Below the pieces are notes generated by a model. That model did not search any database, had not been told where the DNA came from, and saw only the letters and a list, made by a program, of their open reading frames with translations. Of a stretch of 64,000 nucleotides of DNA, positions 11,561 through 33,303 are shown piece after piece (positions within the stretch are counted from its first letter, which is position 1; each line of letters begins with the position of its first letter). The DNA comes from a plasmid. The translations under genes and the position numbers were made by a program. The stretch lies in the sequence record NZ_CP118918.1, one strand, 5' to 3'.

Positions 11561-11895
11561 CCACAGCCGACACCATCGCTATTCGCGAGCAGCTGGTCGC
11601 GGTGTTGCGGGCCGCCGAAGCACCGATGACTAGCGCCGAGCTGGCCAGCGTTCTACCGTGGCAGACCCACCGTCTCGATGTGGGCTGCGAGCTGGTGTGT
11701 CACGCACCTCGCCGGCCCACGGCGATGCGGGTGGTCGAGTGTCATCGAACCTGGCATCTGGTGAGTCGTCCGCGGTCCTCACAGGACTCGCGCACAGGGA
11801 TATATCGACATCTGAGGAGCTTGGCCCGTGCAGGGACCATCCGATCGATTGCATTGGGGCCGAGAAAAGTTCAGTGGGAGTTCGTAGGTGAATAG
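11557..11895 (+). CDS. Hypothetical small protein, possibly a winged-helix DNA-binding protein
   Basis: GTG start overlapping the previous stop. About 112 aa. No motif recognised with confidence. Confidence 0.35.
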   Translation: MTTADTIAIREQLVAVLRAAEAPMTSAELASVLPWQTHRLDVGCELVCHAPRRPTAMRVVECHRTWHLVSRPRSSQDSRTGIYRHLRSLARAGTIRSIALGPRKVQWEFVGE

Positions 11896-11905
11896 GAGAG
11901 TGACG

Positions 11906-12157
11906 ATGAGCAGGATCACCGTGTACACCAAGCCCAACTGCGTGCAGTGCACCGCGACGTTCAAGGCGCTCGACAAAGCGGGCATCACCTACGCGAAAGT
12001 CGACATCAGCGTCGATGCCGAGGCCCGCGACTACGTGATGGCCCTGGGCTACCTGCAAGCCCCCGTCGTGGTGGCCGGCGATGAGCACTGGAGCGGCTTC
12101 CGACCCGACCGCATCTCCGAAGTCACGGCTCCAGCACTCGCGCAGCTATCCATGTAG
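11906..12157 (+). CDS. nrdH: NrdH-type glutaredoxin-like redoxin, copy 1
   Basis: 83 aa. MSRITVYTKPNCVQCTATFKALDKAGITYAKVDISVDAEARDYVMALGYLQAPVVVAGDEHWSGFRPDRI carries the CVQC active site and the NrdH signature WSGFRPD. RBS GGAGAG upstream. Confidence 0.85.
   Translation: MSRITVYTKPNCVQCTATFKALDKAGITYAKVDISVDAEARDYVMALGYLQAPVVVAGDEHWSGFRPDRISEVTAPALAQLSM
11918..12128. repeat. Left arm of an inverted nrdH repeat pair; the partner lies at 26200-26425
   Basis: About 200 bp with 4 mismatches against the reverse complement of the nrdH copy 2 coding region. Similarity stops at the gene boundaries. Confidence 0.85.
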
Positions 12158-18100: not shown

Positions 18101-21037
18101 TCCGCGGGTCAGCGCGGTGTACACCTGTTGGCGGGTGAGTTGATCGGAGCCCACGGTGTGGCAGCGGTAGCGGGCGGTCGCGCCTTGGGTGGCGTCGATG
18201 GTGCGGGCGTAGCCCAGGGTGACGTGGGAGCGGACGTAGGCGGCGGGCAGCCGTAGATGTGCGTGTGACTCCAAGTGCGTGACGGTGATCGAGCCGTCCG
18301 GATCGACCTCGGTGACTTCCCAGCGGTAGCCGTTGCGCACGAAGTCGGTGGCACCCAACGCGAGGGTGCGATCGTTGTGTTTGGTGAACACGAGGTCCCC
18401 GACGCTGGCGCGGGCCCCGGCCATCAACACCGCTTCGATGCCGGTGGCGTGTTCTCCGAGTTCGGTCAGCCGGTGCAGCCGGGCGCGGTCGTTGAGTTCA
18501 GAAACCAGCTCGTGGGTCGGCGCCAACAGCAGCGAGTGCTTGTCCTCAGCGATGTCGGATTGCCATGCTTGGAACGCCATATCGGAGGCGGCGGCTTGGG
18601 TGCCGACATGCACGCGCTGGGCATCGAGATAGAACGCGATCCCTGATGGGTCGCCGTCGCGCAGCGCGAGACCGGCTTGGGCTTCGGAGGCCGAGGCGAA
18701 CCGCATCACCTGGGACAAGGTGATCGCCCCGTGCTCGTGGGCCAGGTCGCGCAGCACACCGCCGGCGCTGATCGAGGACAGCTGTTTGTCGTCCCCGACG
18801 AGGCGCACGCTGGCGCCGCGGGCCAAGGCGACCGCGATCATCGACGCCAGCGCCAACGTGCCGGCCTTGCCGGCTTCGTCCACGATGATCAAGGTGTTCT
18901 CATCGATCGCGTCGTACCACTGCCGGGCGGGGTCGCCGGGGGAGATGTCGGGATTGTCGGTGAGCCAGTTGAACTTATCGAGGGTGTCACCGACTTCGAC
19001 GTCGATTTCTTCGCGCAACAATTGCGCGGCACTGGCGCTGGGAGACAACCCGATGACGGTGCCCCCGGCGCCTTCCCAAGACCGGGCCAGCGCGGCCGTG
19101 GCGGTGGTTTTCCCCGACCCGGCCGGGGCCAACGCGAGCATCACGCGCTGCCCGCGGCACGCCATTTCGCGGACCAGTTGGGCTTGACCGGCGTTGAGTT
19201 CGCGGCGGTGCGCGGCCTGGGCGAGTAGCTCAATTTCGACATCGGCGGCGGGCACGGTGCGGCCGTCGCGCAGTGTGGCGGCGGCCAGGATTTGCCGCTC
19301 AGCGGCCAGGATTTCGGGGCTGGTGTAGGTCTGCGTCCCGGCTTGGCGGTACACGCTGGTCCCGTCGCGGCGCCGCAACACCGCGGGCTCACCGAGGTCG
19401 GTATCAGGACTGGATGCGTGTCGGATGCTGCGCGGTTCGGTCAGGGCGGCGTCGGTGATGAGTTCGGCGATGCCGTCGATTCCGGCGTGCCCGGTGACGC
19501 GGACCACCCGCAATGCTTCGGCCAGTACATGGGTGCGGTTCCAGGTGGACCGCGCTGCGGAGACGGTGGCGATGACCTGGGCGGCGCGGGCGTTGATCCA
19601 CCCTGCGGTGACCTCGGCGGGTGTCGTGGTGCGCCCGGCCAAGGAGCGGGCGATCATCGCGTTGACCGCTTCGTCGCTGCCCAGCAGGCCGACGGCTTGG
19701 GTGCGCCATTCTGCGCGTTGCTCGGCCAGCGATCGGGGTTCGTGTTTGGCGTCGCGGGTGGCCAGGGTGGCTTGTTGGAACATCGCGATCGACTCCGGGG
19801 TGGTCGGCTCGCGGCCGTGGGCGGCCTGAAATTTCTTGGCCAGCACCGCATATTCGGCGTCGATGGCGGCGCGGCGTGAGGACCACAGTTCGTTGAGTTC
19901 GCGGCTGACGCCGACGACTTCGCGGACCTCGCGCTTGCCTTCGCGGGCATCGCCGCGGGCGGCGAACCGCATCCCCAGCTCGTCGCCCAGGTAGGCCTCC
20001 AGGCGTGAGTTGTACAGCTCGGAGGCCGCGACGGTGGAGGCGTAGAGCGGGCGGCCATCGAGGGCGTACCAGCGGGGGATGCCGTCGGTGCCGCGGGCGC
20101 GGACCTTGTTGGAGATCGCGACGTGGGTGTGCAGGCCGGGGTCCGAGGCGCGGGTGTCGCGGTGGAGAAATTCGGCGGTGATGAAGCCTTCGGTGTCGAC
20201 TTGGGCGATTCCTTGGGCGCCGATGCGGGTGTAGGCGGCCTGATCTTGCAGGAAGTCCAGGGCGTCCTGGACGGCCTTGCGGTGGCATTCCTCGATCTGT
20301 TTGGCGATCGGTTCCGGGCACAGCGCGTACAGTGCGGACACGCTTTTGACCGGGGTGAAGGTCATGTCGTAGCCGGCGACCGAGGTGGTTTGGTCGCGGG
20401 TGCCGCGGGCGATGAACCCGGTCAGTTCGCGCTCGTCCAGGGGTGCGCGGCGGTGCTGTTCTTCGAACATGTCGGTGGCGATGTCGGTGCGCATCTGCGC
20501 CCGCACTGTCTCGTCAATGGCGGCGTTCCAGTGCGCACCGACCGACAGGTTGTGATCCCGATACGCCTCAGCGAGCCGCTGCTGCAGCTCGGTTTCGCCG
20601 GCGTTGACCCGGAACGGGCGACCGAGGGTGGTCGCGGTCAGCGCTGAGTTTTTGCGTGCCCCTTGGGCAATGAGCTGCTTGGTCAGCGCTGAGGCGTTCG
20701 GGTGCACCCCCAGCCCGAACAGGGCCTTCATCTGGTCCTCGGTGACCTCGGAGCCTTCGGCCACTGACCACAGTCGCTCTCCGGCGTCGGTACGGGTCCA
20801 GTTCTGCGAGCCCGCGGACAAGCCGGCCAGTCCGCGTCCGCCCCAGCGGCCCGGTGTCTCGCCCTTGGAGGAGTAGTAGTCGCCCAACGATTCCGGGCCA
20901 TGGGTGCGGTCGTGGGCAGCCACCTGCCGCACCAGGTACAAGTACCCGGAGCCAGCGGTGAGCTTGTGGATGCCCGCATTCACCTGCCCAGCGCACCGAT
21001 TTCTCACGACGAAACCAAGGCTGCTTTCCGCCAGCAT
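15125..21037 (-). CDS. MobF/TrwC-family conjugative relaxase fused to a RecD-like helicase (TraA-like), with a roughly 900-aa Ala-rich C-terminal extension
   Basis: 1970 aa. N-terminal TrwC relaxase motifs are present (HKLTAGSGYLYL, GDYYSSKGETPGRWGG, TFTPVKSVSALY, HTHVAISNKV). The helicase Walker A is LAPAGSGKTTATAAL. Confidence 0.9.
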   Translation of the reverse strand: MLAESSLGFVVRNRCAGQVNAGIHKLTAGSGYLYLVRQVAAHDRTHGPESLGDYYSSKGETPGRWGGRGLAGLSAGSQNWTRTDAGERLWSVAEGSEVTEDQMKALFGLGVHPNASALTKQLIAQGARKNSALTATTLGRPFRVNAGETELQQRLAEAYRDHNLSVGAHWNAAIDETVRAQMRTDIATDMFEEQHRRAPLDERELTGFIARGTRDQTTSVAGYDMTFTPVKSVSALYALCPEPIAKQIEECHRKAVQDALDFLQDQAAYTRIGAQGIAQVDTEGFITAEFLHRDTRASDPGLHTHVAISNKVRARGTDGIPRWYALDGRPLYASTVAASELYNSRLEAYLGDELGMRFAARGDAREGKREVREVVGVSRELNELWSSRRAAIDAEYAVLAKKFQAAHGREPTTPESIAMFQQATLATRDAKHEPRSLAEQRAEWRTQAVGLLGSDEAVNAMIARSLAGRTTTPAEVTAGWINARAAQVIATVSAARSTWNRTHVLAEALRVVRVTGHAGIDGIAELITDAALTEPRSIRHASSPDTDLGEPAVLRRRDGTSVYRQAGTQTYTSPEILAAERQILAAATLRDGRTVPAADVEIELLAQAAHRRELNAGQAQLVREMACRGQRVMLALAPAGSGKTTATAALARSWEGAGGTVIGLSPSASAAQLLREEIDVEVGDTLDKFNWLTDNPDISPGDPARQWYDAIDENTLIIVDEAGKAGTLALASMIAVALARGASVRLVGDDKQLSSISAGGVLRDLAHEHGAITLSQVMRFASASEAQAGLALRDGDPSGIAFYLDAQRVHVGTQAAASDMAFQAWQSDIAEDKHSLLLAPTHELVSELNDRARLHRLTELGEHATGIEAVLMAGARASVGDLVFTKHNDRTLALGATDFVRNGYRWEVTEVDPDGSITVTHLESHAHLRLPAAYVRSHVTLGYARTIDATQGATARYRCHTVGSDQLTRQQVYTALTRGVHGNHIYFSTAEHDPHRVLSPKATHPDTAVDVLTRALARDAAQVSATSAARAATDPAARLAAATQMYAHAVGTAAESRLSPAQHAELDSHAEKLVPGLTTATAWPVLRQHLALIAAAGIHPLKRLDKVVASGGFDNAADPAAVIDWRLDPTGAHSGGAGPLPWLPAIPERLAADPQWHTYLAARAQRVTDLAAEVTATARQWSAATAPRWARPLVGTDLELAAELAVYRAATAVEDNDTRIAGAEQYPARTRAAQRGLEQRAAELIGADATTNRYDTLIDSINPHIRHDPYWPQLAHHLAAAARTGVNITQLVRTVAAERPLPDELPAAALWWRLCGTLTPAVLETANGGLRPDWLPDLHTVFGTELAETIAADPAFPALVSAIGNADPDQWTPRDLLHVAAEHLYDADAHLTHHLRPDEYARLLTYSIEVFTTADPYDHDIPLPDTAPLTPEEHEELAHLHPDIENTPPGRQHAHDDVLADPNNLAAALGLDDYDLTEPTAPDDQLPPPEHADDYFTPDTGIDFDSLSTVRPSPAAALAAHRADVHALRDRYAAADAQVRALAAHVTAGGGPHVLAATDELRRMRAAADADRPFLARVEAVLDQWHHAETTYAEALELIGHARTELDTLRADPDADPLDIASATQHLNFLTSYQLPPTSPAEQFHPAFDEATAARAAAAGGSEHIVTHADADALLRRCRADDDTLLARHRADRAALRDQLHRAELAAAQAFARAQRSTAEHITELLPRIDTELRVLDAAGQHAFQERLPISEHPDIDTDRLRRLTDAPFVLTAAHASDRAALLPMMKHLERAAHDAQRPLIWAAPATICDNADLSPIANTVIDAATLDLHDSAPGTIVVIDRAEHISPETIADLTETAATAHARIILLDTNTATWPPPPAAPLLKLLHTELRWSPVLTAATGRINHFDASPDSNAALTQAAGLHPDHHTPAITTALQRHRKAQQRNTTAHDLHTRMWNAAHRDEGFSRGG

Positions 21038-21222
21038 CCGAACGGGCCGTGACCAAACCGTGACCTAAGTGCAAGAGGTGTGTGGGACCAAGCCAGGCTG
21101 GAAAGCAACGATGCAGGTCAACAGGGGTGAGACGGTGGTGAGGGTGAAATCAGGGGTGAGTGGGTGGCTGCGGAAGAAGGGAAGCGTGATTGCGTCGTAA
21201 GGGATGGCTAGCATCCGGAAAC
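21038..21222. promoter_or_regulatory. Candidate oriT and relaxase promoter region
   Basis: Intergenic region upstream of the MobF relaxase gene. Direct repeat CCGTGACC-AAA-CCGTGACC. Imperfect inverted repeat GCTTTCCGCCAGC / GCCAGGCTGGAAAGC. Positional inference only. Confidence 0.3.
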
Positions 21223-21834
21223 ATGGCTAAAGCAACGACGAAACATGCAGTGAAGCAGCGGGTTCTGGAGGCGCGGCGCGCCGAGAAGGCCGCACGGGAG
21301 GCGCGCGAGGCGGCCATTGTCGACGGTCTGTCGGAGTTTCTCGCCGAAGTTGACCGTGCGGCGGCGGTGGGGATGAAGCTCGAAGAGCAGGTAGCGGCGG
21401 CGCGCACGAAGGCCGCCGAACGTGTCGAGCGGATTGAACGGGAGACCGAGGAACGAATCGCCACGTTGACCGAGGCGGCGCGGGAGGAAACGGCGCGGTG
21501 TGAGCGGGCGGCCGGTGAGGCTGTGATGCGGCTACGGGGGCAGGGTGAGACGGTGGCGGCCATTGCGAGCCAGACGGGTCAGAGCCAGAACCGAGTGCGC
21601 GACTTGGGCAAGCTGGCGGTCGGCTCGCAGGACGCAGCTGAGGCGGCGGACCCTGACGGGGCGCAGGCAGGGCAGGCTGGGTCCATGCAGGACGGGGGAG
21701 CCGGCGCTGAGGATGCCGCGGTGGTGTCGGCCAGTGGAGTGGACGCAGGCACTGCTGGTGGAGAGCTCGGCGACAGGGAGGCGACCGACGCTGAGGAGCT
21801 GACGGTAGGCGCGGCCGCGAGCCTGAGCGCGTAG
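21223..21834 (+). CDS. Coiled-coil hypothetical protein
   Basis: About 203 aa. Charged heptad-like repeats (AREAREAAIVDGLSEF...ERVERIERETEERIA). Starts at the internal ATG of track ORF 21190..21834. Confidence 0.45.
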   Translation: MAKATTKHAVKQRVLEARRAEKAAREAREAAIVDGLSEFLAEVDRAAAVGMKLEEQVAAARTKAAERVERIERETEERIATLTEAAREETARCERAAGEAVMRLRGQGETVAAIASQTGQSQNRVRDLGKLAVGSQDAAEAADPDGAQAGQAGSMQDGGAGAEDAAVVSASGVDAGTAGGELGDREATDAEELTVGAAASLSA

Positions 21835-22376: not shown

Positions 22377-22461
22377 GCCTTCGGTAGTTCTAGTCCGCGC
22401 GATGGCCTGCGGGACTGGCCCGGGTGGGGCGGTCCCGCAGGCGGTGGCGCGGATGGGGCTA

Positions 22462-23961: not shown

Positions 23962-25503
23962 TCAGGTGGTGACGGTGGCGGGTTCGCCGGTCAGCGTTTC
24001 CACGACGAGTCCGACGAGATCGCGGGCGGCTGGTGGGGTGACGGCGTTGCCTGCCAGGCGGACTTGCTCTCGTCGGGTGCCGAGCATGCGGTAGTCGGTG
24101 GGGAAGTCCATCGCGGCGGTGATTTCGCGGGGCTCCAGCATCCGGAAGAACACGTCGTTGATGTCGATGTGCTGTGGCGGTGCGGGGGCGGGTCCGCTGG
24201 TGATCAGGCTGTGGCGCTCGACGGTGGTGACGGTGGGCAGGGCTTCGTTGGCAGGGGTGCTGCCGCCTTTGCCGTAGTAGCTCGTGATCAGGGGGCGGGG
24301 CTCGGTGGGGTTCCAGCGTCCGTGGAACACGTCGCCGCGTGTGACGGGGGTGTAGACCAGGCCGTGGTGGTTGCCGGATGCGGTGACCGTCGAGAGTGCT
24401 TCGGTGGTGCAGCGGGCATCGCTGGAGCCGCCGCGGAGTTCGGCGATGAAGGGCGCGAAGGCGATGCCGTCGTTCTCGCGGGTGGTTCGGGTGGCGATGG
24501 GTTGATCGACGGCGACAGCTTCGTTGCGCCAGGTGCCTCCGGTCGGGACCAGCAGCGCGGTCTCGCTGCGCGTGGTCATGGTGCGTGTCGGCTGGTCGAC
24601 CGGGGCGGCGTTCTTGCCGTCGCGTCCTTCGACGGGTACCAGCATGGGCTGCCAGTAGCGCTGGATTCCGGCGGCGATGCGGGCCATGGTCTTGTCGGCC
24701 AGGGGGCGGGTGCGCTCACCGATGCGTGTGCCGGTCAGTGACCAGTCGATGATGTCGGCGGCCGGGCGGTAGGTCGGCTCGATCACCTGGTTGCGGCACG
24801 CGACGTTGGGGCAGCGGTAGACGTACTGGGCGCGGTACTTACCCCACGGTGCGCGGTCGGTGCGCTTGAAGCTCTGGACGGCGCGGACCGGTCCGCAGGC
24901 GGGGCACACCGCGTAGGGGGACACGATCCGCTTGACGTCGGGGCGGGGATCGCCTGCGCGGGTGAAGATCGCATAGAACCGGTCTCTCGACTGGGGGGCG
25001 CCGCGACCGAGCAGTTGCGCATGCATTGAGTTCAGGTAGACCATCTGGCCGACGTAGCCGATGGATTCCATTGCCATGCGCCACGCCTGGAAGGGCGGCC
25101 AGAACACCACGTCGACCACGTTCTCCACGATCACGGCGCGGTACATGTGGTACTCGGAGAAGCGCACGACATCCCACATGGTGGCGCGGGAGCGCTCGGC
25201 GGCGGCCTCGGGGAGAATCTCGCCGAACAGATCCGGTTGGGCGTCTTGACGTTTGCGGCCCTGGGCGATGCTGTGCTTGGTGCAGCTCGGGCTGGCCCAC
25301 AGCAGATCAGTGGTGGGGAACAGACGCGGGTCAATCTGGGAGAGGTCGGCCTGAATGTGGTCGGTGTCAGGGTGATTGGCGCTGTGGGTTTCGATGGCCC
25401 TGTCCCAGTGGTTACTGGCGACCCTGGCCACGACGTTGTTGATCATCACAGCACCAGCCGTGGAGCCTCCAGCGCCGCAGTAGAGGTCGGTGATCGTCAG
25501 CAT
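23962..25503 (-). CDS. DNA (cytosine-5)-methyltransferase
   Basis: 513 aa. Motif I DLYCGAGG. Motif IV ASPSCT (PC motif). Motif VI ENV. Motif VIII QSRDRFYAIF. A large variable target-recognition region follows. Confidence 0.9.
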   Translation of the reverse strand: MLTITDLYCGAGGSTAGAVMINNVVARVASNHWDRAIETHSANHPDTDHIQADLSQIDPRLFPTTDLLWASPSCTKHSIAQGRKRQDAQPDLFGEILPEAAAERSRATMWDVVRFSEYHMYRAVIVENVVDVVFWPPFQAWRMAMESIGYVGQMVYLNSMHAQLLGRGAPQSRDRFYAIFTRAGDPRPDVKRIVSPYAVCPACGPVRAVQSFKRTDRAPWGKYRAQYVYRCPNVACRNQVIEPTYRPAADIIDWSLTGTRIGERTRPLADKTMARIAAGIQRYWQPMLVPVEGRDGKNAAPVDQPTRTMTTRSETALLVPTGGTWRNEAVAVDQPIATRTTRENDGIAFAPFIAELRGGSSDARCTTEALSTVTASGNHHGLVYTPVTRGDVFHGRWNPTEPRPLITSYYGKGGSTPANEALPTVTTVERHSLITSGPAPAPPQHIDINDVFFRMLEPREITAAMDFPTDYRMLGTRREQVRLAGNAVTPPAARDLVGLVVETLTGEPATVTT

Positions 25504-25525: not shown

Positions 25526-25573
25526 GTGATGGCTATAGCCTACCACAGAATGGATGGTGATAGCCATCCAATA
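25526..25573. promoter_or_regulatory. 48-bp palindromic operator/promoter element containing GGCTATAGCCTACCA, directly upstream of the C5-methyltransferase gene
   Basis: GTGATGGCTATAGCCTACCACAGAATGGATGGTGATAGCCATCCAATATG has terminal 10-bp inverted arms and an internal 10-bp palindrome GGCTATAGCC. Related copies lie at 26458-26481, 30312-30345 and 33253-33303. Confidence 0.6.
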
Positions 25574-25587
25574 TGTGGGGCTTGTGG

Positions 25588-26136
25588 TTAGGTCAGCTGG
25601 TCAAATAGGTCGAGCTGAGCGTCGGCACCGAGGTCGAGAACGCGGCGCAGCAGGGCGTCGGCCTGTTCGTGCATCTCTGTGGTGCGGCGGTAATGCTCGC
25701 GGTCTTCCTCGTCCGTGGGGTGGTAGCGAGAGCATGGTCGGCTGTGTGCGTTGGGGGGCGTGCGGGCGTGGGGGCAGCGGCACCACTGCCATGTGCGGTG
25801 CTGCTCGGCTCGGGTCGCGGTCAGCAGGTCAGCTATCTGGCTGCGCAGCGCGGTTGGCAGGGCCTGTCCGAGTCGTTGAATCTGAGTGGCGGTGACCGTG
25901 GCACGCGGGGGGCCGGAGCCGGGGCGGGGGCTGATGAACTTTGATCCGACGGTCCAGTAGCTGGTCATCCAGTCGGGTGCGCCGTGGGGGGCGGTCGGGC
26001 CGCTGGCGCCGCCTGCGCGGGCCAGCAGGGATCGCAGTGCGCGTTCCTCGAGGAATGCGTCCAGGAGGGCACTGCCTGATGATCTGCCGACGAACGCCAG
26101 GAGGTGGCGTTGGTCGGGTGTCAGCGTGGGGCGCAT
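25588..26136 (-). CDS. Cys-rich hypothetical protein between nrdH and the C5-methyltransferase
   Basis: About 182 aa from the ATG at 26136 (MRPTLTPDQRHLLAF...). The C-terminus has a putative Zn cluster CRCP...C..H. The longer track ORF would overlap nrdH. Confidence 0.45.
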   Translation of the reverse strand: MRPTLTPDQRHLLAFVGRSSGSALLDAFLEERALRSLLARAGGASGPTAPHGAPDWMTSYWTVGSKFISPRPGSGPPRATVTATQIQRLGQALPTALRSQIADLLTATRAEQHRTWQWCRCPHARTPPNAHSRPCSRYHPTDEEDREHYRRTTEMHEQADALLRRVLDLGADAQLDLFDQLT

Positions 26137-26170
26137 GCGCACAGCCTGACGAGGCAGTGCCGGTGGGCGC

Positions 26171-26437
26171 TCATGCGGGCATCGCTGTTGCATCGGGTGC
26201 GGATACCGCAGGGTTGCCGGCGGCCTTGATGCGGTCGGGTCGGAAGCCGCTCCAGTGATCATCGCCGGCTACCACGACGGGGGCTTGCAGGTAGCCCAGG
26301 GCCATCACGTAGTCGCGGGCCTCGGCATCGACGCTGATGTCGACTTTCGCGTAGGTGATCCCCGCTTTGTCGAGCGCCTTGAAAGTCGCGGTGCACTGCA
26401 CGCAGTTGGGCTTGGTGTACACGGTGAAGGTGGACAT
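26171..26437 (-). CDS. nrdH: NrdH-type glutaredoxin-like redoxin, copy 2
   Basis: 88 aa. MSTFTVYTKPNCVQCTATFKALDKAGITYAKVDISVDAEARDYVMALGYLQAPVVVAGDDHWSGFRPDRI. About 98 percent nucleotide identity to copy 1 over about 200 bp. The C-terminus differs. Confidence 0.85.
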   Translation of the reverse strand: MSTFTVYTKPNCVQCTATFKALDKAGITYAKVDISVDAEARDYVMALGYLQAPVVVAGDDHWSGFRPDRIKAAGNPAVSAPDATAMPA

Positions 26438-27013
26438 AACGCGCCTGCCTTTCTAAGTGGATGGCTATAGCCTACCATTAAAGCTAGGGCAAGTCAACGG
26501 GAAAACGGCCCTGAACTGGACCATTCGCGACACCTAAGGCCGCGACAGGCTCGACGCGAGCAGGCATGCGATGTCCGTGTCCTTCTTCTATCCAGGCGTA
26601 GTTCTACTGACGCGGGCACGGCTGAGGCCGGACGGATCGTAGGAAACAGCGGGAGGGGGCCCTGAGTGCATGACCGGCCAGTCCGGACATCGCGAACCTC
26701 GTGGGCCGCCGCAGGGGCCACCGCCTGCCGGCAGGTCGCGGTCTCTACATCCATCGTGATCAACAGATGATGGTCCAGGTTCCGACCTAAAACTGCCGGC
26801 CGGCCGGCAGCGTCTGTGAAATCGGTGGGATTCTGCAAGGCCGGTTATTTTTCGAAAGCGTTGGTAGGTGCTCCATCCCTAAGGTGTTTGCGGCCCGCCC
26901 CTGAGAGAGGGGCTAACTACGACGCATCCGTCGCCACAGTGCGGTGCGTATGCCGAGCCTCTCGGTCGTCCCAGCACAGAAAGCTCGAATACCTATATGA
27001 GGGTACAGATTTG

Positions 27014-27982
27014 ATGTTCCCACGTGTTCTCGCCGTCGTGGCCAGCGCACTGCTGACACTATTGCTGGCCGGCTGCACAGGCGACTCTGCAACGCCCAGC
27101 AATGAGCGTGGCGTCCCGGCCGCGCCACGGCCATCGGGCCCTGCTGGACATTCCGTGGACACCGTGACCCTGCAATTTTGCGGCCACAACCTTGATCCCA
27201 GTTGCACGCCGGGCAGCTATGTCGGGCCGTTCGTGTCGCTGACCCCCAACGGCGGGCATTGGGACGCCAACGGTAACCCCGTCAACGGAGGCCCGGTCGG
27301 CGCTGACGGTTCCACCGGCAACAACCTCACCCAGGAGTACTGCGCCCGCAACCAAGACCCCGCCTGCCCGATCGGCACTTTCGTTGCACCCAACGCGATC
27401 AAGAATCCCGACGGAAGCCACACCTACGTCGTCTGTGAGGGCACCATCTGCACCAACCCCAACCACGGCGGCGGTGATCCACCAGGGTATTGGGACGCCA
27501 ACGGTAACCCCCTCAACGGAGGCCCAGCCGGCGCTGACGGTTCCACCGGCAACAACCTCACCCACGACTACTGCGCCCGCAACCAAGACCCCGCCTGCCC
27601 GACCGGCACCTACGTCGCACCCAACGCGATCAAGAACCCCGACGGCACCAACAGCTACGTCGTCTGCGACGGCACCATCTGCACCAACCCCAACCACGGC
27701 GGCGGCGACGACTGTGACGGCACCATCTGCACCAACCCCAACCACGGCGGCGGCGATACACCCGACACTGACACCACTCCCGGCGACGACTCCATCGACA
27801 CCGACGAACCCAGCGATGCCGGCACAAATGACACCGGAGACACCGACCCGCCACCTGATTCCGACGATGGCCCCGCATTCGACGACACCCCGGAAAGCTC
27901 CAACGACGATGGTGTCATCGACGACACACCACCGGATTTCGACGACAGCACCGACACCGGCAGCTTCGACGACGGAAACTAG
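27014..27982 (+). CDS. Secreted lipoprotein with two and a half tandem 77-aa Cys-containing repeats and an acidic Asp/Thr/Pro-rich tail
   Basis: The ATG at 27014 gives a signal peptide with lipobox LLAGC. The repeat WDANGNP.NGGP.GADGSTGNNLT..YCARNQDPACP.GT.VAPNAIKNPDG...YVVC.GTICTNPNHGGGD has a 231-bp period at 27260 and 27491, with a partial third copy. Confidence 0.7.
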   Translation: MFPRVLAVVASALLTLLLAGCTGDSATPSNERGVPAAPRPSGPAGHSVDTVTLQFCGHNLDPSCTPGSYVGPFVSLTPNGGHWDANGNPVNGGPVGADGSTGNNLTQEYCARNQDPACPIGTFVAPNAIKNPDGSHTYVVCEGTICTNPNHGGGDPPGYWDANGNPLNGGPAGADGSTGNNLTHDYCARNQDPACPTGTYVAPNAIKNPDGTNSYVVCDGTICTNPNHGGGDDCDGTICTNPNHGGGDTPDTDTTPGDDSIDTDEPSDAGTNDTGDTDPPPDSDDGPAFDDTPESSNDDGVIDDTPPDFDDSTDTGSFDDGN

Positions 27983-28027
27983 ATGCGTGTGACGTGCTCG
28001 CGCAACGAGCAGCCTATTCGCTAGGCG

Positions 28028-28789
28028 CTATGCCCCTGCAGACAGAGTGCGGTAGCTGGTCGGGCTCATACCGACGCGTCGCTTGAACGTGGTGGAGAAG
28101 TGGCTTGGCGTGGAGAATCCCAGTGCAGCGGCGATCTCGGTGATGGTTACCGAACTCGCCGATAGCATCTCCCGTGCTCGCGCGATGCGTTGCTCGATTA
28201 GATACTGGTGCGGGGTTGTACCGAAGGCGGCTGTGAATGCTGGCAGGAACGTACTCGGTGTCATGTCCACGAGGTCGGCCAACCTGTTCAGATCGATACG
28301 ATGGTCCAGTTCGGTGTGCAGGTAGTCGATAACGATCTGCTGATCGTGGATTTCCATGCTGCGTTTGGGTTGGGCGAGACGCCGACGTACATCGGTCGCG
28401 GGGTACAGGTCGGCTATGTGCATCTGCATCGTCTGGGCCAGCGACTGCCGGAACAGCTGTGCTGCTGCACCCTCTTGAAGGGCCTGGCTGGCTAGGCGGT
28501 CCACCAGGCGGTGCAGCAGCGTGTCCGCGTGGCCGACACGAGGGTTGACATCCCTTCCTCCGAAAATAGCTGTGGGGACGGTGATTTCGCAGAATCCAAC
28601 TGTAGACCCACGTGCCAGCGCGGCGTAGCGCCGCTCGGCCGGGATCACCCACACGTCGCCCACACGCGGAAGGCAGGGGCCCGACGGCCCGTCCTCGAAC
28701 TCGATTTCCATCGACGCAAGATCCCCGCGGCGGTGCACGACGAACACGTGGTGAGGTTCCTGGAAGCACCAGTCGGTGGGCGCAGTCAC
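28028..28789 (-). CDS. AraC-family transcriptional regulator
   Basis: 253 aa. N-terminal cupin-like sensor domain. C-terminal AraC HTH (IDLNRLADLVDMTPSTF...TITEIAAALGFSTPSHFSTTFKRRVGMSPTSYR). Confidence 0.8.
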   Translation of the reverse strand: MTAPTDWCFQEPHHVFVVHRRGDLASMEIEFEDGPSGPCLPRVGDVWVIPAERRYAALARGSTVGFCEITVPTAIFGGRDVNPRVGHADTLLHRLVDRLASQALQEGAAAQLFRQSLAQTMQMHIADLYPATDVRRRLAQPKRSMEIHDQQIVIDYLHTELDHRIDLNRLADLVDMTPSTFLPAFTAAFGTTPHQYLIEQRIARAREMLSASSVTITEIAAALGFSTPSHFSTTFKRRVGMSPTSYRTLSAGA

Positions 28790-29041
28790 CCGTTCGGCGA
28801 CGAACCGGAAGTCCAGCCCTTGAACTGCAGGGTGCGCGCCGACACCACACTGCGATCAGAGCGCTTGCGGTGCCCATCCCAAACCTGCGTCCGTCCTGAA
28901 CCGCGCATTTCGAAAGTCTCCAGTTTTTCGAAGCAACCTGGCGATTAGGCCACGATAGCGGCCCCCGCCGCAGGTCGATCCGCGGTCTCGGATGATCGCA
29001 GGTCGGCTTCCCGGATTCACCTATCTGGCCAGTGCCTACGG

Positions 29042-29791
29042 CTAGAGGCTGAGGCCGTGGCTGGGCGGAGCGAGAGACTTGGCCCACCGGCGTTCTTGGT
29101 CAGTGACCTGTTCTGTTGAGCGAGGTTCTACGGTGTCCAGCAGCAGCGCTGTGAGGCGGCCGTACTGCCCGGTGCTGTGCCCGTGGTAGCGGGCGCCGAT
29201 GAACTCTTCCCGACGTGCGAGGAGCTGCACGCCATCGAGGGCGTAGCCGTATTTGCGGCATACGGTGGCCATCAGCATGGTTTGGCTGCGCGTGTTGCCT
29301 TCACGAAAGGGATGGACCTGATCGAGTTGCCCCCAGTGCCGGGCTATCGTCGGGATAAACGATTGTGGGGCAAGGTTTGCGGGGTCACTCAATGCGTGCT
29401 GGAGTTGGGCAAACACAGCAGTGGCCTGCTCCTCTACGAGACGCCCCGCTGGGTAGCGGTAGGTGACCCATGGAGCGGACCGGTCGTCGGGGGCGAAATT
29501 GACGACATCGCGCCACTGCTTTGCCATCGCGTTCTCCGGAACAACTCGCGTTGTTCCGGCCCACGCGTACACGTCCTGGAAGATGCGGTGGTGCACGCGG
29601 CGGTAGTAATCGAGGTCGACGGTCTCGGGAAGCGCGGAGTGGTCATCGAGGATGATGCCGCGCATGCGCGGCGCGACGGCATGCGCTTCGGCAACCGCTA
29701 GGTCGGGGTAGCTCTTGATGCCGAATTTGTTCTTGAGCACGCCTGGCGCATCAGGCCAGAAGTAGCTATCCCACGTGTCGTAGGACGTCAC
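29042..29791 (-). CDS. Fic-family protein, putative AMPylating toxin
   Basis: 249 aa with a canonical Fic motif, HPFREGNTRSQ. Confidence 0.8.
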   Translation of the reverse strand: MTSYDTWDSYFWPDAPGVLKNKFGIKSYPDLAVAEAHAVAPRMRGIILDDHSALPETVDLDYYRRVHHRIFQDVYAWAGTTRVVPENAMAKQWRDVVNFAPDDRSAPWVTYRYPAGRLVEEQATAVFAQLQHALSDPANLAPQSFIPTIARHWGQLDQVHPFREGNTRSQTMLMATVCRKYGYALDGVQLLARREEFIGARYHGHSTGQYGRLTALLLDTVEPRSTEQVTDQERRWAKSLAPPSHGLSL

Positions 29792-30003
29792 CTGTCCCTG
29801 AATCCCGGCTGTGTGAAGCGCGCGACCACCTCAGCGGCGGCCTGGTCTTCGTTGAGTTCACCACGGTCCATGCGGGCCAGGAGGTCGCGAACAGAGTCGC
29901 TGTCGGGGAACCCGGCGAGGCCGGCGGCGGCGATGGCCAGAGATGATGCTTCCTCTGGGGTGTAGGTCACCGGTCGGCGCTGGAGCTGGCTCATGAGAGG
30001 CAT
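29788..30003 (-). CDS. Putative antitoxin of the Fic protein (VbhA/FicA-like small helical protein)
   Basis: 71 aa. Its stop overlaps the Fic start (ATGA). Small acidic helical protein. The inhibitory S/TxxxE(G/N) motif is not cleanly present (TPEEA, GELNED). Confidence 0.45.
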   Translation of the reverse strand: MPLMSQLQRRPVTYTPEEASSLAIAAAGLAGFPDSDSVRDLLARMDRGELNEDQAAAEVVARFTQPGFRDR

Positions 30004-30370
30004 TGTAGTTTCTTTCGTTCGATGGGTTGCGTCAACGGAAAACGTGGGGTGCAGGTTCTGCGAGGCAGTCCACCCTGGAGTAGGCGGGGTATCGAGGCGA
30101 CCCTTAGCCCGGCCTACCTTCCAGAAGTGAGCCCAGCAGCGGCATGGGTCGCCGCCCCCATGCCCGCTGGCGTGAGCGTGTAGGCGATAGGTACGTCGCA
30201 GTGGTCCTCGTTGAGGCTGTAGGCGATCGGGGAGTCAACAGAAGCGCTGGAGTTCATGCGGGGCATCACCTCTCGTGTAGGAGATAGGGCTCACCGCCAT
30301 AAGTGGCGGCTGTCTATAGCCTATCAGCAATGGTAGGCTATAGACACCCTCACGGAGAGTTTGCCTACGA

Positions 30371-31558
30371 ATGAATGTCTGTGCCACAACAGAATTGGAA
30401 CTGTCCGGCCTACACGGTTCGCGTCCACCGTCGGTAGTGGTGTCCTACGGCCTCGGCCTCGATTCAACGTGCCTGCTGCTGCGGTGGCTGCGGGAACCCT
30501 CAACCCGCGACTTCGCCGTGGAGGACATGGTGGTGGTCACGGCGATGGTGGGAGACGAGTTCAGCTCTACTACGGTTGCGGTGGAGTCACTGATGCTGCC
30601 GCTGTTCCGAGAGTTTGGCGTTCGCTACGTCCAGTGCGCCCGCGGTCAGCGGGTTACGACGGCGGCTGGCGAAGGTGTTGTCGTGCTGGATGACTCGACG
30701 TATCCGCAGAAACTGTACGCGGAGGGCGCATACCGGCTGTCCGACGAGATGCTGTCTGCTGGCACGCTGCCACAGCTCGGGGGAGCACGGAAGTGCAGCA
30801 TGCATGCCAAAGGGTGGGCTTTGGACCCGGTGATTGCCAAACTCACGGCAGGGCAACCATATCGGCATGCCATTGGGTTCGAATTGGGTGAGCAGGGCCG
30901 GGCTGAAAAGGACCGCCGGTACAACACCACACAGCGCACCGGTTGGTATCCGTTGATAGAGGCTGGCTTTGACCGACAAGCCTGTCATGACTACGTGTCC
31001 GCGAACCTTGGTGTGGCGTGGGAAAAGTCGTGCTGTTCGTACTGCGTTTTCGCCCTGACGAGTGCACGTGGGCGCGCCGGGATGGTGGAGCGGTACCGTC
31101 AGGAGCCGGCGGCCGGGGCGCGGGCGATGCTCATCGAAGCGACAGCTCGGCGGCTCAACGCACGTCAGACGTTGATAGCGGGTAGCAGTGTGGCGCAGAT
31201 GGTCCGAGAGGCGGGCTTGACCGCGGTTGAAGACGAGTTCCGGCGGGTCTTCGCCGAGTCGGGTTTCGCAGTGTACGACGTCCGTCGTGTCACACCGGCG
31301 GGCGTGGGCGGTCGGCGGGGTGTGACGGCGCGGTCTGTCCGCAGGCTCGCTACTGGGTCCGAGGGCGCCATGGACGCATACCTTGCGGGTAGCCCAGGGC
31401 AGAGGGCGGTGGGGGCTGACCGCATTGTCCGGCATCACCTACCTGCTGGGCCGGGGTGCGAGCATTTCCGGGTGGTTGCCCCCGCCGTGGTAGAGGATAA
31501 GCAGCGCAAAGGATTTGATCGCATATGGGCTAACGCCAATAGCCCTTCGCTATTCTGA
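30371..31558 (+). CDS. PAPS-reductase/PP-loop superfamily protein with a degenerate P-loop
   Basis: 395 aa. The N-terminus VVVSYGLGLDSTCLL sits in place of the SGGKDS PP-loop. The downstream PAPS-reductase-family block PLIEAGFDRQACHDYVSANLGVAWEKSCCSYC follows the family pattern P[LI]..W....[VC]..Y.....L..N.LY..G..S.GC..C. Confidence 0.55.
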   Translation: MNVCATTELELSGLHGSRPPSVVVSYGLGLDSTCLLLRWLREPSTRDFAVEDMVVVTAMVGDEFSSTTVAVESLMLPLFREFGVRYVQCARGQRVTTAAGEGVVVLDDSTYPQKLYAEGAYRLSDEMLSAGTLPQLGGARKCSMHAKGWALDPVIAKLTAGQPYRHAIGFELGEQGRAEKDRRYNTTQRTGWYPLIEAGFDRQACHDYVSANLGVAWEKSCCSYCVFALTSARGRAGMVERYRQEPAAGARAMLIEATARRLNARQTLIAGSSVAQMVREAGLTAVEDEFRRVFAESGFAVYDVRRVTPAGVGGRRGVTARSVRRLATGSEGAMDAYLAGSPGQRAVGADRIVRHHLPAGPGCEHFRVVAPAVVEDKQRKGFDRIWANANSPSLF

Positions 31559-31706
31559 GCAGGTAGCAGTGTGCCTGCGCGGTCGAGTCCCCCGTCGGCC
31601 AGAGATCGCGGGCGCACTGCTATCCCCCTGTCGAACTGACCGGAGATAGTGGCGCAGCGGCGTAGTGGCGGCGAGCGGGAATTCAGATTCTACGAAGTCG
31701 TGGTGG

Positions 31707-32132
31707 TTAGTTGCTGCGCAGAATGTCGGTGACGCGGTGTTGCACAGCGGTCCAGTCCTCGGGTGGGAGCGCGGCGATGCCCGCGGTCCATCCGGCATTG
31801 GGGTCGATGTGATGGCGCAGCTCGGTGAAGCAGGCGATCTGGGGCAGCGCTCCAGTAGCGCTGAGGGTGCGGATACGGGCTACCACGTCGTGGGCGTGGC
31901 GGTCGATGTGGAGCCAGTAGGTCGCCGGGCGATGGGTGACAGCAGCCAGGTCGTCGTGTCGCACGTGGTGCCAGCTCAGGTAGGTCAGACCGTTGGTGAG
32001 TCGTACGCGTGCGACGGGGTGTCGATCGTCGACGCTGACGGCGTGGAACGGTCGGACGGCCGCCACGTAGGGGGCTGGGGTGGTGGGTGACTGGGCGTTT
32101 CGGTCTGGTGGGGGAGAGTCGAACGGGTCCAT
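31707..32132 (-). CDS. Hypothetical protein
   Basis: 141 aa. No motif recognised. Confidence 0.4.
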   Translation of the reverse strand: MDPFDSPPPDRNAQSPTTPAPYVAAVRPFHAVSVDDRHPVARVRLTNGLTYLSWHHVRHDDLAAVTHRPATYWLHIDRHAHDVVARIRTLSATGALPQIACFTELRHHIDPNAGWTAGIAALPPEDWTAVQHRVTDILRSN

Positions 32133-32165
32133 TGCAGTGGTGCCCTCCCTGGAGTCGCGGGCGGG

Positions 32166-32507
32166 TTAGGAGTCTTGCGCTGGCGTGGCCATGGCCTGCT
32201 CGATGCCTCTGGTGAGCGCAGCGACGGTGGTCTGCAATGGGGGCGCGATCTTTGCCAGAAAGACCACGGTGGGTGTACGTTCGCCGGCTTCCACGCCACG
32301 CAGGAAGATACGGTCGACGCTGGCCTGGTCGCTGAGGGCGCGTTGAGACAAGCCCAGGGTCTCGCGGCGCTGGGCGATGTTGCGGCCGACGACCGGCATG
32401 ATGCGTGCCAGCAGCGCGCGGTCGGCCTGCGCTTGCAGCTCACGGGCGGCCAGACCGGCGCGCTTGCGTTCCTCAGCAGTGGTGGTCACGGCTTTGGTCG
32501 GGGACAT
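32166..32507 (-). CDS. XRE-family helix-turn-helix transcriptional regulator
   Basis: ATG at 32507. About 113 aa. HTH: LGLSQRALSDQASVDRIFLRGVEAGERTPTVVFLAKIA. Confidence 0.65.
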   Translation of the reverse strand: MSPTKAVTTTAEERKRAGLAARELQAQADRALLARIMPVVGRNIAQRRETLGLSQRALSDQASVDRIFLRGVEAGERTPTVVFLAKIAPPLQTTVAALTRGIEQAMATPAQDS

Positions 32508-32618
32508 GGGCGGCGGTCCTTTCACGTGCGGTATCACCACCGCGACTTCTTGCCGATAGCGTACTCGCGGTGGTGGGTGAAAGGCTACCAACGGGCGCGG
32601 GTGGGTCACCGTGCTGAC

Positions 32619-33200
32619 TTATCCTTGGCTGGCGGGTTCTACCGCGGGTGCTGTGTCGTCACGGACCGGGAATGGGCTGGCTTGCAACGGTGCTCGGTCA
32701 TACGCTGGTGCGTATCGACCGTCACGGTCGTAGCCCCAGACATCGAATCCGTGCTCGTCAAATCGGTGGATTGCCGCCGCACCAGCGCACGTCATTTCGG
32801 CGCGGCAGGCCAAGCCGTTGCGATCGACCCATTCGAGGTCAGGGCTGGTCTCGGAGATCACCCAGTTAACGAGGGCTGTCTCGTCGGCCTCCAGCGGCCT
32901 GGACCGGGCGTCAGCCTCTCCGAGATACCAGTGAGTGCGGTCCTGCAATTGCCGGTCATGCTGACGGTCACCGTGGGCCTCGATGGCTGCGCGTTTCGTG
33001 GTGTAGCGGGTAGCGGTTCGTGGTGTCCCGTGCACGTCGACTATGGCCCAGCAGCGGTCGGACTTCTTGGCTACGGTCCACGTCGTGGGCAGGTTGTCCA
33101 GGTGGTCTCGCAGCGACCTTTCGAACGCGTCGAGCTGGCTGGCGCGGAGGCGGGCGTGGCGGGCATCCGCGTGTTCGGCCGGGGGCGGCTGAGTGTCCAT
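32619..33200 (-). CDS. Hypothetical protein
   Basis: 193 aa. Preceded by a copy of the CTATAGCCTACC motif element 55-100 bp upstream. Confidence 0.45.
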   Translation of the reverse strand: MDTQPPPAEHADARHARLRASQLDAFERSLRDHLDNLPTTWTVAKKSDRCWAIVDVHGTPRTATRYTTKRAAIEAHGDRQHDRQLQDRTHWYLGEADARSRPLEADETALVNWVISETSPDLEWVDRNGLACRAEMTCAGAAAIHRFDEHGFDVWGYDRDGRYAPAYDRAPLQASPFPVRDDTAPAVEPASQG

Positions 33201-33252
33201 GGAGCGCAGTCCTTTCCTCGGATGCTGTGGGGTATCGACAGCTTTCGCTATG

Positions 33253-33303
33253 CGGATTGCTATAGCCTACCACAAATGTGGATGGTTATAGCCGTCCAAT
33301 ATC
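33253..33303. promoter_or_regulatory. Second full copy of the 48-bp CTATAGCCTACC element, upstream of gene 32619..33200
   Basis: CGGATTGCTATAGCCTACCACAAATGTGGATGGTTATAGCCGTCCAATATC is about 85 percent identical to the element at 25526-25573. Confidence 0.6.

Follow-up and report, generated by a model that had tools for sequence, protein, structure and literature searches.

An 18-bp palindromic box at putative promoters and a candidate XRE-family repressor in a gene module beside the MobF relaxase gene of mycobacterial plasmids

The stretch of DNA analysed here, 64,000 nucleotides (nt) of plasmid record NZ_CP118918.1 read on one strand and referred to as the window, belongs to a Mycobacterium plasmid of the ESX and type IV secretion system (T4SS) type which encodes a MobF relaxase. 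Beside the relaxase gene, an 18-bp near-palindromic box recurs at five putative promoters of a conserved gene module, one of which precedes the gene of a helix-turn-helix (HTH) protein of the XRE family. The reading favoured here, to which a probability of about 0.65 is assigned, is that the boxes are the promoter-operators of one plasmid regulon repressed by this XRE protein, which would also regulate its own synthesis. The box is a conserved regulatory element and, although the kind of circuit is known, it is undescribed for mycobacterial or Gordonia MobF plasmids; a full-text literature search for GGCTATAGCC, the inner part of the box, retrieved no relevant paper. To our knowledge, almost nothing is known about gene control in ESX-/T4SS-dependent mycobacterial conjugative plasmids.

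The box in the window and its putative promoter geometry

A preliminary description of this DNA had reported a palindromic motif recurring at four sites, and this recurrence was confirmed both by sequence shuffling and by a position weight matrix (PWM) scan. The motif CTATAGCCTAYC, with at most one mismatch, has five matches at four intergenic sites (25533-44, 26465-76, 30314-25 and 33260-71 on the plus strand, 30332-43 on the minus strand), while dinucleotide shuffles gave 0.06 on average and none of 100 shuffles reached five. The 18-mer GGATGGCTATAGCCTACC, with at most three mismatches, was found six times against 0.01 expected, and the PWM scan of the 64 kb located seven boxes, all intergenic, at four loci serving five promoters (Table 1). 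In the rest of the 64 kb no PWM score exceeded that of the best shuffled sequence, and the T4SS and metabolic regions are free of boxes, as had been stated. The earlier concern that the motif might be equally frequent in random sequence is thus answered by the shuffles and by the confinement of the boxes to intergenic DNA. Unlike these shuffle-based statistics, raw k-mer counts did not bring out the motif, being swamped by GC-rich codon repeats. A scan of 22-38 kb against Rfam gave no match.

Although the motif first described is real, the better unit is an 18-bp near-palindrome with the consensus GGTAGGCTATAGCCATCC, which itself holds a -10 hexamer; the dyad pattern shared by the five promoters is GG(T/A)(A/T)GGCTATAGCC(A/T)(T/A)CC. 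All five gene-proximal boxes read TGnTAGGCT toward the adjacent gene, followed by ATAG-nCAnCC, the hexamer TAGGCT occupying box positions 3-8. Mycobacterial -10 elements follow the rule TANNNT, and a preceding TGn makes an extended -10. Since TAGGCT fits this rule and TGn precedes it, the gene-proximal boxes are called as putative extended -10 promoters. The suggestion that the motif marks promoter regions is therefore supported, but the box would not be an operator alone, the gene-proximal copies also providing the extended -10 element.

Three of the four loci carry box pairs with a spacing of 24-26 bp. At sites 1 and 4, a further box lies 25-26 bp upstream of the proximal one and keeps the dyad GGATGG-N6-CCATCC without a -10 hexamer, so that these upstream boxes look like pure operators. 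With the -10 hexamer set at -12 to -7, the proximal box would be centred at about -5.5 (extending from about -14 to +4) and the upstream box at about -30.5 (from about -39 to -22), both overlapping the core promoter by sequence. The likeness of these two sites, formerly given as about 85% identity between 48-bp elements, amounts to 41 identical out of 51 aligned columns (about 80-85%); the resemblance stands, with the figure slightly adjusted. At site 1, 23 nt separate the end of the proximal box from the ATG and include the Shine-Dalgarno sequence GAGAGGA. Site 2 has a single box and, 17 bp upstream of TAGGCT, the -35 hexamer TTGACT (26492-26497); hexamer and box are both kept in pSMC-8_2 and djl-10_1.

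Site 3 consists of two -10-bearing boxes placed back to back, 24 bp apart and facing divergent genes. The element at 30312-30345, previously taken for a perfect 34-bp inverted repeat, is in fact made of 13-bp perfect arms (TGTCTATAGCCTA / TAGGCTATAGACA) with 10 bp between them; alternatively it can be folded into a 16-pair stem with one G-T pair and a 4-nt loop. In addition to the seven boxes, a degenerate copy is found upstream of the XRE gene. Its PWM score of 7 is not significant on its own, and it is possibly a weak internal promoter/operator of that gene.

Table 1. Boxes, associated elements and genes in the window (positions are those of the window; ORF, open reading frame; PAPS, phosphoadenosine phosphosulfate)
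Feature	Position	Strand	Details
Site 1, proximal box O1	25527-25544	-	GGTAGGCTATAGCCATCA; TAGGCT 25537-25542 after TGg; C5 methyltransferase
Site 1, upstream box O2	25552-25569	-	GGATGGCTATCACCATCC; dyad without -10, centre about -30 from the inferred start
Site 2, single box O1	26459-26476	-	GGTAGGCTATAGCCATCC; TAGGCT 26469-26474; nrdH, then 182-aa gene
Site 3, leftward box	30308-30325	-	GATAGGCTATAGACAGCC; -10 at 30318-30323; small ORF, VbhA-like antitoxin, Fic
Site 3, rightward box	30332-30349	+	GGTAGGCTATAGACACCC; -10 at 30334-30339; PAPS-reductase-like gene
Site 4, proximal box O1	33254-33271	-	GGTAGGCTATAGCAATCC; -10 at 33264-33269; 193-aa/XRE/141-aa operon
Site 4, upstream box O2	33280-33297	-	GGACGGCTATAACCATCC; dyad without -10 hexamer
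Degenerate box	32572-32589	-	GGTAGCCTTTCACCCACC; TGgTAGCCT; 82 nt upstream of XRE ATG
Small hairpin	30294-30309	+	CCGCCA-taag-TGGCGG; abuts site 3 leftward box; then CTGTCT ATAGCC to 30323
XRE-family HTH gene	32169-32507	-	113 aa; HTH_3; HTH at about residues 40-100; recognition helix VDRIFLRGVEAG
C5 cytosine DNA methyltransferase gene (target)	23962-25503	-	
nrdH and conserved 182-aa gene (target operon)	25588-26437	-	nrdH 26171-26437; 182-aa gene 25588-26136, phrog_12222
Small ORF, VbhA-like antitoxin and Fic (target operon)	29042-30257	-	antitoxin 29788-30003; Fic 29042-29791
PAPS-reductase-like gene (target)	30371-31558	+	395 aa; phrog_424, E 1.9e-5
193-aa gene, XRE gene and 141-aa gene (target operon)	31707-33200	-	193-aa gene 32619-33200; 141-aa gene 31707-32132
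MobF relaxase gene	15125-21037	-	1970 aa

Conservation of the boxes and the candidate regulator

The closest record is pSMC-8_2, with 91.6% identity across half of the region. The same boxes are found at the same promoters in pSMC-8_2, djl-10_1 and pSMC-4_1, and also in p20-157661 and the M. dioxanotrophicus plasmid, the coding DNA of which is only about 82% identical to the window. In alignments of orthologous upstream regions the boxes are constant, while the flanks and the 6-7 bp spacers vary. In all, relatives with boxes kept at the same promoters between diverging flanks occur in at least 13 Mycobacterium/Mycolicibacterium replicons. A Gordonia bronchialis plasmid, pGBRO01, has one locus (L009 19994-20044), a perfect palindrome with 25-bp arms containing two copies of GGTAGGCTATAGACACCC, the 18-mer found at window position 30332, and this palindrome sits between a C5 methyltransferase gene and an operon with an XRE gene. 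The check proposed with the preliminary description, conservation of the motif on homologous plasmids, therefore turned out positive, Gordonia included. Moreover, the regulated genes, which had been regarded as cargo, belong instead to a conserved backbone module beside the MobF relaxase gene on many Mycobacterium plasmids and, in part, on Gordonia ones.

A scan with GGTAGGCTATAGNCANCC in one genome per species returned at least 50 stretches. Among the stretches returned, every non-mycobacterial locus had the seed match alone, and all 13 Mycobacterium/Mycolicibacterium loci had two to six boxes within at most 8 kb, mostly as pairs 24-25 bp apart. The matches outside the box-bearing group are single chance hits, as are, in the viral contigs, two isolated single matches which are taken as noise. 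The same gene module recurs over the 13 mycobacterial loci, each short piece carrying a subset only. Box statistics were drawn from 20 loci, distinct boxes and pairs being counted. The 35 distinct pairs have spacings of 23-26 bp, mostly 24. The T of TGn is present in 54 of the 57 distinct -10-type boxes and is conserved in these boxes only, not in the others; downstream of the -10 hexamer, ATAG, CA and CC are conserved. A gene start follows within 130 nt in 53 of the 57, with a median of 23 nt between box end and start codon. Furthermore, 27 boxes which lack TA at box positions 3-4, where the -10 would start, still keep GGnnGGCTATAGCCAnCC.

Several observations on relatives stand beside these results. 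In pSMC-8_2, available as a whole (114 kb), eight of the nine boxes lie 3.6-16 kb from the relaxase gene, and the ninth (TGgTAGGCTGTAGACAACC, position 96,456; L004 46456-46473) heads a 211-aa proline-rich ORF missing from the PLSDB gene table, which is followed by an 803-aa gene upstream of ESX and T4SS genes; therefore, the regulon may reach transfer genes in that plasmid. At the divergent promoter by the PAPS-reductase-like gene (L006 14255-14335 and its equivalents in L007, L024 and L046) the palindrome arms measure 31-33 bp, the pGBRO01 palindrome being the counterpart. These long-arm palindromes run into both 5' untranslated regions (5'UTRs), and three mirrored substitutions distinguish L006 from L024; such likeness of the arms could come from the correction of near-palindromes during replication or from selection for a DNA structure. 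An identical 18-mer, GGTAGGCTATAGGCAACC, is present once each in L030, L051, L052, L058 and L060, contigs of Actinomycetota metagenome-assembled genomes (labelled Actinomycetota, Rhodoluna and Micrococcales), where it is probably part of a conserved gene or RNA and has no relation to the boxes of the plasmids.

A single shared DNA-binding regulator and a co-regulated gene set had been proposed, with the XRE protein at 32166-32507 or an AraC protein as candidates. The comparisons support the shared regulator, whose binding is here predicted from sequence, and the XRE protein is the best candidate by its co-occurrence with the boxes, its position behind a box promoter and the covariation of its recognition helix with the box. 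Among the box-bearing replicons sampled, its homologue is the one DNA-binding gene which all have in common; this extends to Gordonia, where the pGBRO01 protein (76 aa) is 54% identical to that of the window. Both in the window and in pGBRO01 the XRE gene follows a box promoter; in the window, as in its closest relatives, it stands second in the operon of site 4. In eight other replicons (dioxanotrophicus-type plasmids, pSMC-4_3, M. lentiflavum, M. nebraskense and a Mycobacterium metagenome-assembled genome) the XRE coding region is preceded by a box within about 30-160 nt. For pSMC-4_3 and the dioxanotrophicus-type plasmids this box is a good palindrome, such as GGGTGGATTTAGCCACCC, with a TAG-type -10 hexamer (TAGGCT, TAGGAT or TAGACT) 25 bp downstream, an arrangement which points to autoregulation.

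The start of the recognition helix varies along with the type of box. Proteins with [V/A/L/I]DR are accompanied by GG...CC boxes in 14 replicons; VNR (M. abscessus pGD21-1) and IHR (M. aubagnense) by TGTAnnCTATAGGCAACA pairs 24 bp apart, with one additional TGTAnnCTATAGGCAACA box before the XRE gene; and TSR (Gordonia pKB1, pJH63-1 and pGKT3) by one pair of GyACCyyATrGGGT dyads. This covariation fits the XRE protein as the cognate binder. As for the other candidates, the AraC gene proved unlinked to the motif, belonging to an unrelated cluster in pSMC-8_2 and not being found in the 40 kb of box-bearing pGBRO01 (L009) examined; a 589-aa protein with a weak Sigma70_r4 match (35715-37484), considered as a common regulator, was likewise set aside, no homologue being found in pGBRO01.

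The proposed circuit and its alternatives

According to the proposed circuit, the four loci would carry five strong SigA-type promoters of the extended -10 type, one of them also with a TTGACT -35, and the left half of each gene-proximal box, spelled TAGGCT, would double as the -10 element. A dimeric XRE HTH protein would most likely be bound at each dyad, with cooperative binding probable at paired boxes, as at adjacent phage operators. With XRE bound, RNA polymerase would be kept off and all five promoters would be repressed. The repressor would thereby limit its own synthesis, since its dimers would occupy the promoter of the XRE gene too. The module would thus be silenced in established cells. 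In a fresh recipient without repressor, the promoters would work at full strength, giving a burst of the orphan C5 methyltransferase, NrdH, Fic/VbhA, the PAPS-reductase-like protein and the repressor, and expression, which would peak after transfer, would drop as the XRE repressor builds up. The layout of the DNA agrees with this circuit, since one operator motif recurs at several promoters of the same plasmid (seven boxes and five promoters in the window, and likewise in relatives), it overlaps the core promoter by sequence (TAGGCT within the proximal box, the second box reaching to about -39), and the gene of the regulator stands under a motif-bearing promoter (the site 4 operon, and a box upstream of XRE in other replicons).

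Adjacent operators of this size have a classical precedent. In phage lambda, OR1 and OR2, bound by Cro and CI, are dyads of 17-18 bp, 6-7 bp apart and about 24 bp from centre to centre. The boxes resemble them in dyad size and spacing, in their overlap with -10 and -35 and in the HTH dimers, here predicted. Unlike in the Cro/CI system, no bistable switch, inducer or cleavable C-terminal domain is indicated here, and the sites are spread over five promoters rather than gathered in one region. The logic of the circuit, in turn, is already known from R388, IncP and p576. In the MOBF plasmid R388 (IncW), one repressor, ArdK, governs five promoters, its own included, through a network with negative feedback only, and expression overshoots after conjugation (PMC3937220; PMC9723621). 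The circuit proposed here is alike in having a single repressor for five promoters of maintenance or establishment genes (ardC, ssb and others in R388), its own among them, but protein and operator are unrelated, the gene content is different, and the R388 network has been measured, whereas the present one is read from sequence. In the clade II pLS20-family plasmids of Bacillus, the establishment regulon Reg(p576)/EGeRS2 has operators for one repressor, Reg, at four strong promoters including its own (PMC8708921), and it shares with the present proposal one plasmid repressor, establishment genes in several small operons and a proposed burst followed by shut-off. Nevertheless, Reg is a ribbon-helix-helix protein with direct heptamer pairs (TTATCCCnnTTATCCC) flanking the promoter, not an XRE HTH protein with an 18-bp dyad containing the -10; the host phylum also differs, and the p576 circuit is known from experiment.

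The finding offers a concrete and cheap test set of one 113-aa protein, one 18-bp box and five promoters, and it singles out likely establishment genes (the orphan methyltransferase, NrdH, Fic/VbhA, the PAPS-reductase-like protein and a nuclease). The compact, strong and probably repressible promoter is a possible tool for mycobacterial genetics, and the three box classes with matching recognition helices make up a small natural series for the study of HTH specificity.

Several points weigh against the circuit as proposed. The promoter assignment derives from the established TANNNT and TGn rule, and an E. coli-type sigma-70 promoter scan of 22-38 kb gave no match, a result uninformative for TANNNT promoters because TAGGCT agrees with TATAAT at only three of six positions. 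The XRE protein is inseparable by co-occurrence alone from the 141-, 182- and 193-aa proteins because the whole module is co-inherited, and the helix-box link comprises three classes from few independent lineages. The placing of the module in a leading region follows from gene orientation and from the analogy with R388. Paired boxes agree with each other at the variable outer positions more than with other boxes on the same plasmid, a likeness which protein binding alone does not explain. Finally, a box centred near -30 could in principle serve activation instead of repression.

This last possibility would be realized in a switch of the type formed by the controller (C) proteins of restriction-modification systems, an XRE dimer at the upstream box activating and a second dimer at the proximal box repressing, which we consider quite improbable. 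C proteins are small XRE HTH proteins with a trinucleotide-TATA-trinucleotide core and paired sites, as here; they set the timing of gene expression once a new host has been entered, and a methyltransferase promoter can be their target (PMC3488213, PMC2504287). The C-box GAC-TATA-GTC (PMC3488213) is indeed reminiscent of the GGC-TATA-GCC core of the boxes, a DNA methyltransferase is among the target genes, and the controllers C.AhdI and C.BclI are the nearest relatives of the XRE protein with a solved structure; yet this similarity is weak (E 3e-4 to 6e-4 for the best PDB matches) and generic for HTH_3. The boxes do not match the C-box pair GACT-N3-AGTC-N4-GACT-N3-AGTC, whose 15-bp spacing compares with 24-26 bp here, and the boxes overlap the core promoter at both positions. 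Beside the C5 methyltransferase gene neither a restriction enzyme gene nor any nuclease gene was seen, and no restriction gene was found co-transcribed with XRE, the XRE gene being followed by that of a 141-aa protein without family match. Moreover, consensus promoter elements are present at site 2 and at the divergent pairs although no activating box lies upstream of them, and activation before repression, the order in C-protein systems, is not seen here.

It is also unlikely that the boxes are promoters only, copies of a strong SigA cassette (extended -10 and initial transcribed sequence) with no regulator and an incidental dyad. Such a cassette could spread via duplication, and it would account for TGGTAGGCT being the best-conserved part and for the uniform 5'UTR length. 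It would leave unexplained that the 27 boxes without TA at the -10 start keep both dyad arms at a fixed 24-26 bp upstream of the -10, that the XRE and VbhA promoters of dioxanotrophicus-type plasmids have the good palindrome upstream and the -10 in a degenerate box, and that the outer GG/CC, conserved outside the RNA polymerase contact, covary with the XRE helix. A dispersed repeat, of the MIRU, REP or MITE kind, would also be short, palindromic and multicopy. Nevertheless, the boxes measure only 18-43 bp, each orthologous promoter keeps its own copy, the Rfam scan gave no match, and clustered boxes occurred, among the stretches returned by the species-wide scan, only on mycobacterial contigs with the plasmid module, the others being single matches. 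Such a repeat is hardly credible because the boxes always stand at fixed distance and orientation to gene starts, and the MIRU-like repeat once envisaged as an objection was not borne out, all copies being at promoters of one plasmid module.

Two further explanations assign the boxes a role in transfer. Back-to-back pairs such as site 3 could fold in the transferred strand and rebuild a double-stranded extended -10, a minimal analogue of Frpo; the stem would rebuild a promoter, so that the leftward genes would be transcribed before second-strand synthesis. The Frpo/ssi elements of F-like and IncI plasmids are likewise promoter-bearing inverted repeats before co-oriented genes near the transfer origin region, and nearly all module genes face the relaxase, like leading-region genes (PMC11541004). 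Folding of single-stranded DNA is strong at site 3 (z -7, plus strand), in pGBRO01 (z -10.7) and in L006 (z -12.4), the arms reach 25-33 bp in some plasmids, with the mirrored substitutions of L006 and L024, and an extended -10 needs no -35, which would fall past the loop. This hairpin cannot explain the box family, because sites 1, 2 and 4 carry the same box without strong folding (moderate at site 1, z 0.1 and no excess at site 2, z -1.6 to -2 at site 4). Frpo elements are long imperfect hairpins with -35 and -10, whereas good hairpins are formed here at divergent pairs only, three of the four loci having none, and the site 3 hairpin does not rebuild a -35. TGn would fall in the loop in the window, the long arms are found in one orthologue group and Gordonia only, and correction of near-palindromes at replication could equalise arms without selection. 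As a general explanation, the hairpin promoter is distinctly unlikely.

It is very unlikely that the MobF relaxase recognises the boxes, or even site 3 alone, as a MOBF-type nic sequence or one like oriT (the origin of transfer). The R388 nic region reads GGTGCG-TATTGTCT/ATAGCCCAG (PMC4814116, Table 1; also PMC4176350), and site 3, TGGCGG-CTGTCT ATAGCCTA, contains the 11-mer TGTCTATAGCC, identical to the R388 nic core, directly preceded on its 5' side by a 6-bp hairpin (30294-30309); orthologues retain a hairpin there with differing stems, and the plasmid relaxase is of the MobF family. However, the seven boxes lie in both orientations, and if all were nic sites the plasmid would be broken on transfer. 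The CTATAGCC core alone is general, and the position of the T of GTCT varies freely, T being one of its variants. R388-type sites have a hairpin, about 8 nt and GTCT/ATAGC; at site 3 the hairpin is 6 nt from the putative nick in TGTCT ATAGCC, the other boxes have no hairpin, and in dioxanotrophicus-type plasmids the hairpin is elsewhere. Lying at about +5 to +20 of the leftward transcript, the hairpin could equally be a 5' stem-loop of the Fic-operon mRNA as an IR2-like nic-site arm; 30294-30323 may accordingly be an oriT/nic candidate or a coincidence combined with a stem-loop. An oriT-hairpin search beside the relaxase gene revealed no nic-like site, and nothing usable was found in the literature on MOBF oriT sequences of actinobacteria.

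It is rather improbable that the back-to-back pairs, site 3 as well as the 25-33 bp-arm palindromes of pGBRO01 and the dioxanotrophicus-type plasmids, have a second role as a DNA structure of the transferred strand. They could form a minimal hairpin promoter reduced to an extended -10 stem, from which mycobacterial RNA polymerase would read the leftward establishment genes ahead of second-strand synthesis, or part of a MobF nic region, the latter being considered for site 3 because TGTCT/ATAGCC equals the R388 nic core and the hairpin abuts it. If true, a single 40-bp element would combine an operator, a promoter and a DNA structure connected with transfer.

Genes and minor elements of the module

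Nearly all genes within 22.4-37.5 kb are on the minus strand, pointing at the relaxase gene, and an orphan C5 methyltransferase, a toxin-antitoxin pair and a nuclease are found beside the relaxase and co-oriented toward it. Leading regions typically contain orphan methyltransferase and toxin-antitoxin genes (PMC11541004). The C5 methyltransferase gene has 72-74% nucleotide identity to methylase genes in 69 Gordonia phage records, which have only this gene in common with the window; this suggests that phages and plasmids have exchanged it. Wherever the two genes were found together in Mycobacterium relatives, the 141-aa gene comes after the XRE gene, and no homologue of it was found in the Gordonia loci. 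Family and PDB searches gave no function for the 141-, 182- and 193-aa proteins.

Between the promoter of site 3 and the gene of the VbhA-like antitoxin, the minus strand has a small ORF (30114-30257), 47 aa long when read from its ATG at 30257. The peptide is apparently conserved in djl-10_1, and the PLSDB table contains no gene for it. The window has two nrdH copies (11888-12157, plus strand, and 26171-26437, minus strand), the products of which are both about 74-75% identical at the protein level to NrdH of Gordonia pGBRO01. A box promoter is present at the second copy alone; in the plasmids of Gordonia and M. lentiflavum, nrdH is instead preceded by an AT-rich promoter which contains TAGAAT.

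Repeated GGTGAG motifs are found at 21100-21223, between the relaxase gene and a divergent gene starting at 21224, together with a shortened box-like sequence, GGATGGCTAGCATCC, at 21201-21215, in which the hexamer TAGCAT is 8 nt from the ATG; this stretch may be a relaxosome/oriT region or a leaderless promoter. Also near the relaxase gene, an inverted repeat at 22394-22453, with 28-nt arms (82% complementary) and a 4-nt loop, lies between convergent genes and is probably a bidirectional terminator.

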